Source of the DNA: Escherichia phage SKA64
Sequence record: OM362897.1
DNA length: 64,000 nucleotides
Reading direction: 5' to 3' (one strand)
Part shown: piece after piece, positions 2,318 to 17,294 of the stretch
Position numbering within the stretch: position 1 is the first letter of the stretch
How the letters are laid out: each line of letters opens with the position of its first letter
Made by a program: the position numbers and the translations under genes
Notes under the pieces: generated by a model
What the model was told of the DNA's origin: nothing
Seen by the model: the letters and a program-made list of their open reading frames with translations, nothing else
The model's database searches: none

Positions 2318-2428
2318 CTATTTTTTCTTTTTCTTTGCTTCCAACCGTCTAAGGTTACGGCTTGACTTATTGCGCAAGGCGCTTAGATCGTCGTACCCTT
2401 TCCATGCTTGCATATCTTTCGGATTCAT
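2318..2428 (-). CDS. small lysine-rich basic peptide (36 aa, ends KKKKK)
   Basis: AAGGGGG RBS 5 nt before ATG; C-terminal part of track ORF 2318..2590. Confidence 0.35.
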   Translation of the reverse strand: MNPKDMQAWKGYDDLSALRNKSSRNLRRLEAKKKKK

Positions 2429-2438
2429 GTTATCCCCC

Positions 2439-2717
2439 TTAACGATTATAAACATTATGGATGGCTTCAAAGGCAAGATGACCATAAGCCGCCAAATCGG
2501 GATTGATCCAAGCGTTATCCAACATCGTTTCAAGGACTGTGGAATCATCGTATAAAGCATCATAGAAATCTGCACGGATGATCGTTTCAATGTCGTCCGG
2601 TGTTAGTTTGTCGTTCAACTTGCACACTGTTTCAACGTCAACACCAATTTTCCAATTTTGTAAATTAGTGGTTAACATTGTTTTCATTTCTTCGGTTGTT
2701 AATTTAACGATGGTCAT
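2439..2717 (-). CDS. hypothetical protein (92 aa)
   Basis: ORF track; AAGAGAGAAA RBS-like; own promoter-hairpin cassette. Confidence 0.6.
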   Translation of the reverse strand: MTIVKLTTEEMKTMLTTNLQNWKIGVDVETVCKLNDKLTPDDIETIIRADFYDALYDDSTVLETMLDNAWINPDLAAYGHLAFEAIHNVYNR

Positions 2718-14602: not shown

Positions 14603-14940
14603 TACATACTCCCGTATTCTGGTTCAATATTATGTTTACGACAAATGGTATCCCAACGTTCATTACCAAAACTTCTTCCATGTAGAGCGTTAAATGCGAA
14701 ATGCTCTGCCAACCACAATACTACATCATCAGGATCTGTGTCAAGAGGAATTCTAAACTCTCGATCATAACGCATACGCAGAATAAAATCCTTATCATCT
14801 TCAAGGAGATACATGTGACTTTTAGCCCGTGATGCCAAATCAAAGAAAGGAGGCTCATCTTTCCAAATGTGACGCTCAACTTCAACACCATGATCAACTA
14901 CCAGAGTAGCGATCACCTCTCTCATTTCTTTACTAAACAT
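14602..14940 (-). CDS. hypothetical protein (112 aa)
   Basis: track ORF trimmed to ATG with GGAGG RBS. Confidence 0.55.
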   Translation of the reverse strand: MFSKEMREVIATLVVDHGVEVERHIWKDEPPFFDLASRAKSHMYLLEDDKDFILRMRYDREFRIPLDTDPDDVVLWLAEHFAFNALHGRSFGNERWDTICRKHNIEPEYGSM

Positions 14941-14950
14941 ATTACCTCCA

Positions 14951-15127
14951 TTAACCAATTAGTTCAACCGATTTGCAAATGTAAATCCAAACTGGAGTGA
15001 GCATAAGAGCTATACCGAATACACAATTCCACTTAATTCCCATTTCCTCTATTAGAGACATGATTAAGCCAACAGCACTAATAATCAGATAGATCCCTAA
15101 GAAAGCCATTGTGAAGAATTCAGACAT
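14951..15127 (-). CDS. small membrane protein (58 aa)
   Basis: track ORF trimmed to ATG with GGAG RBS; hydrophobic helices. Confidence 0.5.
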   Translation of the reverse strand: MSEFFTMAFLGIYLIISAVGLIMSLIEEMGIKWNCVFGIALMLTPVWIYICKSVELIG

Positions 15128-15129
15128 AT

Positions 15130-15486
15130 TTAGCTCCAAAGATTATCAAAATAACTAGCGAATAAAAGACGGCCCTCTAATCGTGCCTTCCTTTGATCTT
15201 CAGCATACACGATTTCTGGATTACCACTATCAATAAAAGCATTCTCCATCTTTTCTAAAATATTTAACCACTCTCTTCTACCTGTCTCCTCTTCTTCATC
15301 TGTATACGGCGCACTTCTATTTGGATACAAAACACGCATCAGTTTAGTGGGGATCATGACAAACGTGCTATTGTTTGCCTTCTCACGGAAGGCTTTAATT
15401 CCTGCATAGATTACCTTCCCCAAAGCTGCATCCAAATCCATCAGGTCACTTTCTTCTATTTGAATTTCATCGTGTACAATTTTCAT
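15130..15486 (-). CDS. hypothetical protein (118 aa)
   Basis: ORF track; GGAGAAGG RBS. Confidence 0.6.
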   Translation of the reverse strand: MKIVHDEIQIEESDLMDLDAALGKVIYAGIKAFREKANNSTFVMIPTKLMRVLYPNRSAPYTDEEEETGRREWLNILEKMENAFIDSGNPEIVYAEDQRKARLEGRLLFASYFDNLWS

Positions 15487-15770
15487 CGTGCCTTCTCCCG
15501 ATCTGCATCTAATTTCAACAAGAAAGCTGTATACTCTTCCGAACCTTGGTGTAAAAACATGCGATAAGAGCTTACCAGTTTCTTGGTCGTTGTATAACGT
15601 TCCATTTCCCCAACAACACCTCCACCTAGTGTGTAGAGCACAATACCTTCAACTCCAACATGGGTTACTACTTCAACCAAGTCTGTGTTATCCCAATGAT
15701 AGTTAGGTGACACAATAAGATCGCCAACTGCCAGTTTAATGTTTGCTACTTCATTTTGTGAATAATACAT
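15483..15770 (-). CDS. hypothetical protein (95 aa)
   Basis: track ORF trimmed to ATG with AGAGGAGGA RBS. Confidence 0.5.
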   Translation of the reverse strand: MYYSQNEVANIKLAVGDLIVSPNYHWDNTDLVEVVTHVGVEGIVLYTLGGGVVGEMERYTTTKKLVSSYRMFLHQGSEEYTAFLLKLDADREKAR

Positions 15771-16311: not shown

Positions 16312-16605
16312 TCACATTAAGACACGTTTTGTGTCGATGGGTGCATTATCAAACATGTTAAGAACATTGTCAAGCAGTTTTACTAATTCATTTGTAATTT
16401 GTTCTTTTGAACGGGAGGAAGTGAGCACTTTGCTTTCACCAACGATATGCATAACTTTTATAGGAGCGTCTAAAATGATGTTGTGTTGACGATCCTCTTC
16501 AAAAGAAGCCAACCATTTCTCATTGTTACCGTGCAAGGCTACAATCACACCAAAACCGTTAATTGTTTCAGAAATATTCTTAGTTGCTAAAGTAATGTTC
16601 ATCAT
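16312..16605 (-). CDS. hypothetical protein (97 aa), first gene of minus-strand operon
   Basis: ORF track; AGAGAGG RBS; divergent promoter region upstream. Confidence 0.6.
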   Translation of the reverse strand: MMNITLATKNISETINGFGVIVALHGNNEKWLASFEEDRQHNIILDAPIKVMHIVGESKVLTSSRSKEQITNELVKLLDNVLNMFDNAPIDTKRVLM

Positions 16606-16657: not shown

Positions 16658-16660
16658 AGT

Positions 16661-16688
16661 GTTGACATGCTTTTTAGTCCTGTTAAGA
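16661..16688 (+). promoter_or_regulatory. sigma70-like promoter (plus strand, divergent pair)
   Basis: TTGACA-N16-TAAGAT, 31 nt before ATG at 16720. Confidence 0.6.
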
Positions 16689-16719
16689 TCAACTCATACA
16701 AAACGAGAGGAGAAAACAA

Positions 16720-17148
16720 ATGCAAAACATGACTTGGACCGAAGCTAAAGAAGCGATGCAGAATGGCAAACGTGTGAAGCACGAATACTTCTGTAGTGAT
16801 GAGTGGTTTGAGATGCAATACGGTGTTATTCTGGATGAGCATGGCTACAATATGTCAAACTGGTTCCGAGGGGAAGCTTGGCAAGAACAGGGTTGGTTTG
16901 TAATTGAAAAAGAAGACAGTAAGGAAGAAGGCGTGTTGTCTAATGTAGAACGCGAGATGAGGGAAACAAAGATACCTGCTTTGGATTTTGTATACCTGGA
17001 AGAACTTGTGGCAGCATCTTTTGTAGCAGGAAACCTTTGGAATACACCTGTTAGCCGACTGGAGAACCAAAATAACCCGTCTGCTCGTAATCACAAGCTT
17101 TATAAGGGTAAAGGTCACAACAAATTAAAGAAAGGAAAGAAGAAATGA
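16720..17148 (+). CDS. DUF2829-like protein (Tad2-like candidate) with basic C-terminal tail
   Basis: N-terminus MTWTEAKEAMQNGKRVKHEYF and GEAWQEQGWFVIEK resemble DUF2829 pattern; ends KLKKGKKK. Confidence 0.4.
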   Translation: MQNMTWTEAKEAMQNGKRVKHEYFCSDEWFEMQYGVILDEHGYNMSNWFRGEAWQEQGWFVIEKEDSKEEGVLSNVEREMRETKIPALDFVYLEELVAASFVAGNLWNTPVSRLENQNNPSARNHKLYKGKGHNKLKKGKKK

Positions 17149-17294
17149 TCTACAAAAACAAGTTCACTGGTTGTCTCCGTAAATTTATCGATAAGAAAGG
17201 GTTTGTTTCTCTTGACAAGGGTGTTACGTGGGTGCAAAATGGCACTTCAGAACAACTGATCAAGGCTTTACCTTACTATGAGGAGGTTTTATGA
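17145..17294 (+). CDS. hypothetical protein (49 aa)
   Basis: hand-translated; AAAGGAAAGAAGAA RBS; ATGA overlaps at both ends. Confidence 0.4.
   Translation: MIYKNKFTGCLRKFIDKKGFVSLDKGVTWVQNGTSEQLIKALPYYEEVL

Follow-up and report, generated by a model that had tools for sequence, protein, structure and literature searches.

The gene at 16720-17148

In the 64,000-nucleotide stretch of Escherichia phage SKA64 DNA analysed here (sequence record OM362897.1; hereafter the window), the plus-strand gene at 16720-17148 encodes a small protein of modular build, with a short N-terminal head, an acidic linker, a conserved middle region and a polybasic C-terminal tail (Table 1). Remote homology and structure prediction place the head in the Tad2-like (DUF2829) superfamily, as a stripped-down form of the fold that is not a canonical Tad2. 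Tad2 is, to our knowledge, the most widespread known anti-Thoeris family. Nucleotide comparison places the window in Phapecoctavirus (Stephanstirmvirinae): over the 4 kb that surround the locus, identity was 100% with Escherichia phage vB_EcoM_EP57 and 97-99.5% with tuntematon, phAPEC8 and their relatives.

Conservation indicates that the open reading frame (ORF) at 16720-17148 is a real gene under purifying selection and no chance ORF. Its product matched phrog_22208 over the whole length (profile positions 8-147 of 147, E = 1.7e-87); full-length homologues numbered 21. In their alignment the head was variable, the acidic linker shifted in length and the last ~50 residues were near-invariant. 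Selection was measured against L086, a homologue diverged along its full length (synonymous divergence, pS, 0.45-0.72). The ratio of non-synonymous to synonymous divergence (pN/pS) was 0.17 for the head and 0.35-0.41 for the middle region; for the tail, with five synonymous and no non-synonymous changes, it was 0. The true start is MQN at 16720, and the homologues start with MQN too; the N-terminal string quoted in an earlier sequence-only reading of this DNA, MTWTEAKEAMQNGKRVKHEYF, was found at residues 4-24, with the start itself upstream of it.

Membership of the head in the Tad2-like superfamily

Searches with the window protein found no match in Pfam, even at E ≤ 10, in PDB sequences or in NCBIfam, and next to nothing came from word-index searches for homologues of the head alone or of the C-terminal half alone. 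The family was found by an exhaustive profile search over 1.84 billion representatives, in which 370 cluster representatives were related to the head at E ≤ 1e-3, most of them stand-alone proteins of 59-70 residues, from phages of enterobacteria and others, with the consensus MTxxEAxxAMxxGxKVTHxYFxxxE[YWF]xxMxxGxIxxExGY...FW...GWxI. The head also matched phrog_3474, a separate 64-residue family (E = 5.1e-30, profile positions 1-63 of 64). Homologues were present in 493 phage records, and the family extends over the pre-early regions of T5-like phages and over T4-like, rV5-like, phi92-like and phAPEC8-like phages. This short branch is thus a large one, and it is without annotation in Pfam or NCBIfam.

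When 144 relatives were scanned singly against the 24,736 models of Pfam, 55 of them gave a sub-threshold match to PF11195 (Tad2-like; best E = 2.9e-4), and the next commonest family had only eight matches. The gathering threshold of PF11195 is 25 bits, and the best relatives stayed below it at 19-20 bits; with the same hidden Markov model (HMM), a canonical DUF2829 protein scored 107 bits and an SPO1-type Tad2 orthologue 86 bits. Comparison of the head family by hhalign with 57 bona fide DUF2829 proteins, taken from viral contigs, gave a probability of 88.6% (P = 2.7e-6), against 0.5% for the reversed alignment and 3.9% or less for 30 column shuffles. A DUF2829 HMM run on all six-frame ORFs of the window matched only the one at 16720-17148, and the six-frame scan found no head paralogue or canonical DUF2829 gene elsewhere in the window. 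The window protein also matched phrog_2709 weakly (E = 2.8e-4), a profile matched by the SPO1-type Tad2 orthologue with E = 1.7e-10. On this remote homology we assign the head to the Tad2-like superfamily. The sequence-only reading had called the protein DUF2829-like, which holds for superfamily and fold (the hhalign comparison, the 55 relatives and phrog_2709) and fails for Pfam. It had also held that a profile search without DUF2829 similarity would refute the assignment; the blank Pfam search is, taken literally, such a result, and profile-profile comparison did find the similarity.

Three very large proteins among the hits of the representative search (P0028, P0075 and P0111) were rejected as head homologues, since they are eukaryotic proteins with many Tudor repeats. 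With the narrow head profile they scored highly only through the sum of up to 19 Tudor/Agenet repeats, each insignificant, and with the broader family profile they were absent. The Tudor resemblance (eGdrVearykGgskWYkGkI..adGsYn vs eGrrvkheyfcgdeWfemreGvildenGyn) is one of pattern, without homology.

Predicted fold of the head

A full-length model built from a shallow alignment had a predicted local distance difference test score (pLDDT) of 82-91 in the head and was poor in the C-terminal half; the middle region was modelled as two low-confidence helices (70-82 and 90-102). With this model, Foldseek returned SPO1 Tad2 chains as the top matches in the PDB (E = 0.4, probability 0.94-0.95). When the head was modelled with an alignment of 83 sequences, pLDDT rose to 93, with a predicted template modelling score of 0.79. 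The elements of the head are α1 (6-14), β-strands at 18-21, 30-33 and 36-39, a short helix (53-56) and a last β-strand (59-62). The helix packs on the antiparallel sheet in an arrangement that could be superposed on solved Tad2 structures, and structure comparison matched the fold to ModTad2 and AcrIIA7/HgmTad2. A search of viral structures in BFVD returned the protein's own family members first and then short proteins labelled DUF2829 or Tad2-like. We conclude from the models that residues 1-63 are predicted to adopt a minimal Tad2/DUF2829 fold, with an N-terminal helix on a small antiparallel sheet.

The head carries a net charge of -6, with 12 aromatic and five basic residues, and the net charge over residues 1-104 is -11. 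In the conservation table of the short family, A9, G16, H21, F24, E28, E40, G42 and W59 were near-invariant, as were Y23 and Y43, and these residues make up the family signature.

Probable remodelling of the Tad2 pocket

Tad2 consists of α1 and strands β1-β5, with long β2-β3 and β4-β5 loops that contain α2 and α3. It forms V-shaped dimers through α2 and β2, and tetramers through α1. Glycocyclic ADP-ribose (gcADPR) is bound between protomers and contacted, in SPO1 numbering, by W25, N26, I63, T65, D67, H71, W73, S76, T78 and D79, and the W-N and S-x-T-D motifs are reported to be conserved in ~99% of Tad2 proteins. The equivalent contact residues of HgmTad2 are W21/N22 and S90/T92/D93, and the cyclic-dinucleotide pocket sits within the insertion. 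Reported ligands of the fold are gcADPR, histidine-ADP-ribose (His-ADPR) and cyclic dinucleotides, and trans-activating CRISPR RNA (tracrRNA) for AcrIIA7.

We used the Tad2 orthologue of Goe10 as a ruler, and it reproduced the published contact positions exactly. In the hhalign register, which is of low confidence beyond residue 22, W25 and N26 are replaced by F24 and C25 in the window protein, W48 and W59 align with W73 and W85, and W73 alone is kept among W25, N26, W73, S76, T78 and D79. No equivalent of S-x-T-D was seen in the window protein in this register or in the short-family consensus. The β2/α2 insertion was also absent: in the model, β1 (18-21) is followed by an eight-residue loop and then the next strand, and hhalign placed a gap of ~17 residues at the β2/α2 position of Tad2. 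Because this insertion is absent and the gcADPR motifs are replaced, the window protein is no canonical Tad2. The suggestion in the sequence-only reading of a Thoeris-type signal sponge is left unsupported, the gcADPR-contacting residues being largely replaced and the β2/α2 insertion missing.

The conserved residues of the short family appear to cluster where a pocket would be expected. H21, Y23, F24 and E28, and likewise E40, G42, Y43 and W48/F49, would fall in the two loops matched by alignment and secondary structure to those around the ligand pocket of Tad2, β1-β2 and β4-α3.

The polybasic tail as a portable peptide

The unusual Lys-rich tail pointed out in the sequence-only reading was confirmed at residues 124-142. 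Its sequence K-G-[KR]-G-H-N-K-L-K-K-G-K-K-K is invariant in 20 homologues, and the core K-G-[KR]-G-H-N-K-L-[KQ]-K, with an aromatic residue before it and more K/R after it, is kept in three distant head-bearing proteins (P0029, P0031 and P0051). A degenerate DNA pattern for the core picked out eight viral contigs. The bodies that bear the tail are of three unrelated types, namely Tad2-like heads, 102-residue phrog_27594 proteins and proteins of 183-186 residues. A KNP2-like contig carries the two apart, with a stand-alone head gene and, three genes downstream of it, phrog_27594 with the tail. Other members of the head family end in SEC-C motifs, Zn-ribbons or other basic C-termini instead. From these combinations we conclude that the tail behaves as a portable peptide and the head as a module joined to varied partners; that different proteins share the tail suggests that they dock at one and the same site during infection.

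The same DNA pattern found the tail core nowhere among 185,579 cellular species genomes beyond one 541-bp Phapecoctavirus contaminant contig. This contig (L096, JAPMLR010000052.1), from the assembly 'Lysobacteraceae bacterium JHOS43', encodes the window gene and almost certainly reflects phage contamination of that assembly. In PDB sequences, residues 77-142 gave only a chance match to eL20 (E = 0.8). An ArfA-like or ribosome-channel role for the tail, considered because of its K-G-K-G, was rejected, with no Pfam match at E ≤ 10 and no PDB match beyond this chance one.

The tail-bearing ORFs of other body types lie in myophage contigs of ~145-149 kb, with 102 residues in L088, L089, L092 and L093 and 183-186 residues in L090 and L091/L084; phrog_27594 and the C-terminus of phrog_21279 match them. 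The alternative ends of head-bearing relatives are SEC-C (Pfam E down to 1.9e-8) or small Cys-rich/Zn-ribbon segments (P0093, P0120 and P0164; also P0087, P0100, P0122, P0130 and P0168). Elsewhere in the window, a candidate 81-residue ORF at 2318-2563 (-) ends in another polybasic tail, ...NLRRLEAKKKKK.

Promoters, neighbouring genes and the head allele

The minus-strand block stops at 16605, and the gene at 16720 comes next, as the first on the plus strand. The 114-bp gap between them contains a back-to-back pair of promoter-like sites (Table 1), which agrees with the divergent promoter proposed in the sequence-only reading, and phage ASO2A has an annotated promoter at the equivalent plus-strand position.

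Table 1. Coordinates of the features at and around the gene at 16720-17148 (window numbering)
Feature	Coordinates	Strand	Remarks
Whole coding sequence	16720..17148	+	ATG to TGA, 142 residues plus stop; phrog_22208
Head, stripped-down Tad2/DUF2829-fold domain (predicted)	16720..16908	+	residues 1-63
Acidic linker KEDSKEEGVLSNV	16909..16947	+	residues 64-76; length variable among homologues; pLDDT below 50 at residues 66-73
Conserved middle region	16948..17088	+	residues 77-123; motif LE-x-LVAASF...W-x-TPVSR...PSAR
Polybasic C-terminal tail NHKLYKGKGHNKLKKGKKK	17089..17145	+	residues 124-142; 9 K, 2 H, no acidic residue, net +9
Shine-Dalgarno sequence GAGAGGAG	16705..16712	+	7-nt spacer before the ATG at 16720; sequence read directly
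Sigma-70-like promoter	16662..16689	+	TTGACA, 16 nt, TAAGAT, extended -10 TG; 10/12 match
Weaker promoter-like site	16658-16631	-	back to back with the plus-strand site; sequence match
Diverged patch	16660..16890		~230 bp, ~20% diverged from ASO2A, flanks identical
Downstream 49-residue gene, phrog_2381	17145..17294	+	MIYKNKF...; its ATG overlaps the stop of the 16720 gene (ATGA)
phrog_11295 gene	14605..14958	-	61% identity, E = 6e-51, to the fusion domain of phiWec187

In Justusliebigvirus phiWec187 (L095 2501-3052), the head is fused at its C-terminus to a phrog_11295 domain, and the fusion gene occupies the syntenic place, first behind the divergent junction. The fusion suggests that the head gene and the phrog_11295 gene, which in the window are 2 kb apart and on opposite strands, are functionally linked. 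The 49-residue gene downstream of the window gene also directly follows a stand-alone head gene, on a KNP2-like/Vequintavirinae-like contig (L093 3313-3495), so that the two genes form a conserved pair. A stand-alone homologue of the T5-like phage cott162 (L085 4001-4198) is located close to the A2 gene, inside the left terminal repeat as annotated. The left terminal repeat of T5 is the pre-early, first-step-transfer region, the part of the genome that enters the cell and is expressed before the rest. Jiaodavirus KPV15 has its homologue among small genes between the nrd/glutaredoxin genes and gene 55.

The patch that distinguishes the window from ASO2A spans only the plus-strand promoter, the 5' untranslated region and the head domain; within it, at codons 4-8, CAAAACAT repeats flank a 15-bp indel. 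In the phage collection, tblastn identities fell into bands, with 12 records at ≥99% (the window allele) and 51 at 80-90%. The patch pattern fits a cassette replacement of the head allele, as would be expected under changing selection.

Annotation of the neighbouring genes gave no functional clue. The minus-strand early block encodes a Phage_tudor protein (PF24144, E = 1.7e-25) and a DUF7325 protein (E = 5e-24), at 15486-15770 (-) and 16315-16605 (-). Phapecoctaviruses have been reported to carry another anti-TIR (Toll/interleukin-1 receptor) gene, Atd1; as a relative of the 16720 gene it was rejected, being an unrelated MazG-like enzyme.

Proposed function and its alternatives

The reading that we favour, with a probability of about 0.4, is that the protein is an early, sequestering binder with a remodelled pocket and a docking tail that has a role in host takeover or anti-defence. 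It would be an early-expressed protein of two modules, in which a mini Tad2-fold head is followed by the linker, the helical segment and the polybasic tail. The head would act through binding and not catalysis, probably as an oligomer. Its pocket chemistry appears shifted from W-N and S-x-T-D to aromatic residues plus glutamate, so that the ligand would most likely not be gcADPR; it could be another small molecule, a peptide or a cationic group of a host factor. Through its +9 tail the protein would dock on a polyanion, with nucleic acid as the most plausible partner. The time of action would be early in infection, most likely in host takeover or anti-defence. A plausible early, anti-defence-like setting is provided by the sigma-70-type promoter before a first gene, by the T5-like homologue in the terminal repeat and by the replacement of head and promoter as a cassette. 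By analogy, the Tad2 fold offers a precedent both in the sequestration of small molecules and, as reported, in the capture of RNA (tracrRNA) by AcrIIA7. The protein is a plausible anti-defence variant, no classical Tad2, from a branch of the Tad2-like superfamily with a short head and a remodelled pocket.

Several points weigh against this proposal. The mapping of the pocket loops depends on secondary structure and on a part of the hhalign alignment that is of low confidence. The dimer interface of Tad2 (α2/β2) is missing, and a tetramer with pockets between protomers may never form. The strongly acidic head (net -6) is atypical for nucleotide binders; the neighbouring genes are functionally uninformative, so that context indicates timing only; and no similar tail was found in solved structures or in the 185,579 cellular genomes. 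Ligand binding, oligomeric state and phenotype are all predictions from sequence and model.

A more far-reaching form of the proposal, which we consider rather unlikely, would make mini-Tad2 heads of ~60 residues a class of phage sponges or decoys, with a pocket built from H-x-Y-F, E28 and D-E-x-G-Y for an immune or stress signal other than gcADPR; separately, the G-H-N-K-L tail would be a shared address tag that brings unrelated early proteins to the same target (nucleoid, RNA or ribosome).

It is also conceivable, if doubtful, that the protein binds nucleic acid, in particular RNA, in the manner reported for AcrIIA7. The head would then oligomerise and present several polybasic tails, which would hold a structured RNA or DNA of host or phage as in a clamp and so block or re-target it. 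The tail speaks for this, with its charge of +9 and the strongest purifying selection within the protein, as do the use of the same tail by unrelated proteins and the SEC-C, Zn-ribbon or basic tails of relatives. Against it, AcrIIA7 holds its RNA in a basic groove of the core, and the core of the window protein is acidic. Most family members lack the tail, which means that the head must have a function independent of it, and no nucleic-acid-binding family was matched in the Pfam, PDB sequence or NCBIfam searches. Another group, moreover, was unable to reproduce the anti-Cas9 activity of AcrIIA7.

Nor do we think it probable that the protein is a protein-protein adaptor, whose small β-barrel-like head binds a host or phage protein such as the phrog_11295 product, whose tail serves localisation or docking, and whose role is in the regulation of early development rather than in immune evasion. 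The Rosetta-stone fusion of head and phrog_11295 at the syntenic position in Justusliebigvirus argues for such a function, fusions join the C-terminus of the head to many different partners, and the signature of aromatic residues plus glutamate would suit recognition of a peptide or cationic group. However, the only strong structural relatives are binders of ligands or RNA, and the Tudor sequence matches proved to be an artefact of summation.

We hold it quite improbable that the protein is a genuine Tad2-type anti-Thoeris sponge that sequesters 1''-3' gcADPR (or His-ADPR) and so blocks the activation of ThsA. The head fold does match ModTad2 and AcrIIA7/HgmTad2, every DUF2829 protein tested in published work bound gcADPR, and the gene is early; the W25 equivalent is conservatively replaced by F24 and that of W73 is kept as W48. 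The reported presence of Atd1 in Phapecoctaviruses makes TIR-based defences relevant to this phage group. These points are opposed by the lack of any counterpart to N26, S76, T78 and D79, which belong to motifs conserved in ~99% of Tad2, and by the absence of the β2/α2 element of the V-shaped dimer. The Pfam model was blank, with relatives at 19-20 bits against the 25-bit cutoff, and the tail and C-terminal fusions are foreign to Tad2.

It is scarcely credible that the DUF2829 resemblance arose by chance, from a short helix-plus-strand motif in an unrelated domain, for although the confident hhalign stretch covers only 21 columns, Pfam gave no match and Foldseek E-values against the PDB were 0.4, the shuffled and reversed hhalign controls were clean, 55 of the 144 relatives selected PF11195 from 24,736 models and the DUF2829 HMM selected only this ORF in the window.

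The gene at 16720 brings into view a large, short branch of the Tad2 fold in early and pre-early regions of well-studied groups of enterobacterial phages. If the branch does bind another signal or a host factor, phages would have a wider repertoire of sequestering proteins than now known, and many hypothetical proteins would become accessible to experiment. Independently of the head, the conserved tail offers a further lead, as what looks like a short linear motif common to different early proteins. The candidate is well defined, widely distributed and readily testable, and it is no surprise in kind.

Comparison with known systems

Compared with Tad2 itself (SPO1 gp34.65; ModTad2, PDB 9eib; 8smf/8wje), the window protein shares the helix motif F/W-x-E-A-x-x-A-[ML]-x-x-G-K-[KR]-V, the order of elements from helix through small antiparallel sheet to a terminal G/D-W-x-[IV] strand, and the character of a small protein from early or accessory regions of phage genomes. 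It differs in length, with ~63 residues in the head compared to 75-105, and in the missing insertion (SPO1 residues ~27-59). Where Tad2 has G-W-N-G and P-W-x-x-S-Q-T-D, the window family has H-x-Y-F-[TCS]-x-x-E and D-E-x-G-Y...F-W instead. Unlike Tad2, the window protein falls below the Pfam threshold and carries an acidic linker and a polybasic tail.

AcrIIA7/HgmTad2 (PDB 8kbi) shows that the Tad2 fold is used beyond gcADPR, for cyclic dinucleotides and reportedly for tracrRNA. Its 41-residue insertion forms the cyclic-dinucleotide pocket, and it has a basic RNA groove, for which K58, K66, K71, K93 and R101 have been described in the tetramer core of pdAcrIIA7. The window protein lacks the insertion and has an acidic core; its basic charge lies in a disordered tail, whereas that of AcrIIA7 lies in a groove of the core.

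The phrog_27594 proteins and the 183-186-residue proteins of Vequintavirinae-like phages share the C-terminal Y/F...K-G-R-G-H-N-K-L-K-K-(G/K)-K-K-K with the window protein, but their bodies are unrelated and have no Tad2-like head. The likeness is the reverse for the stand-alone phrog_3474 proteins, such as Jiaodavirus KPV15 gp090 (62 residues) and P162_0012 of the T5-like phage cott162: they are 40-58% identical to the head and alike in the signature residues, but end right after the last strand, without linker, helical segment or tail.
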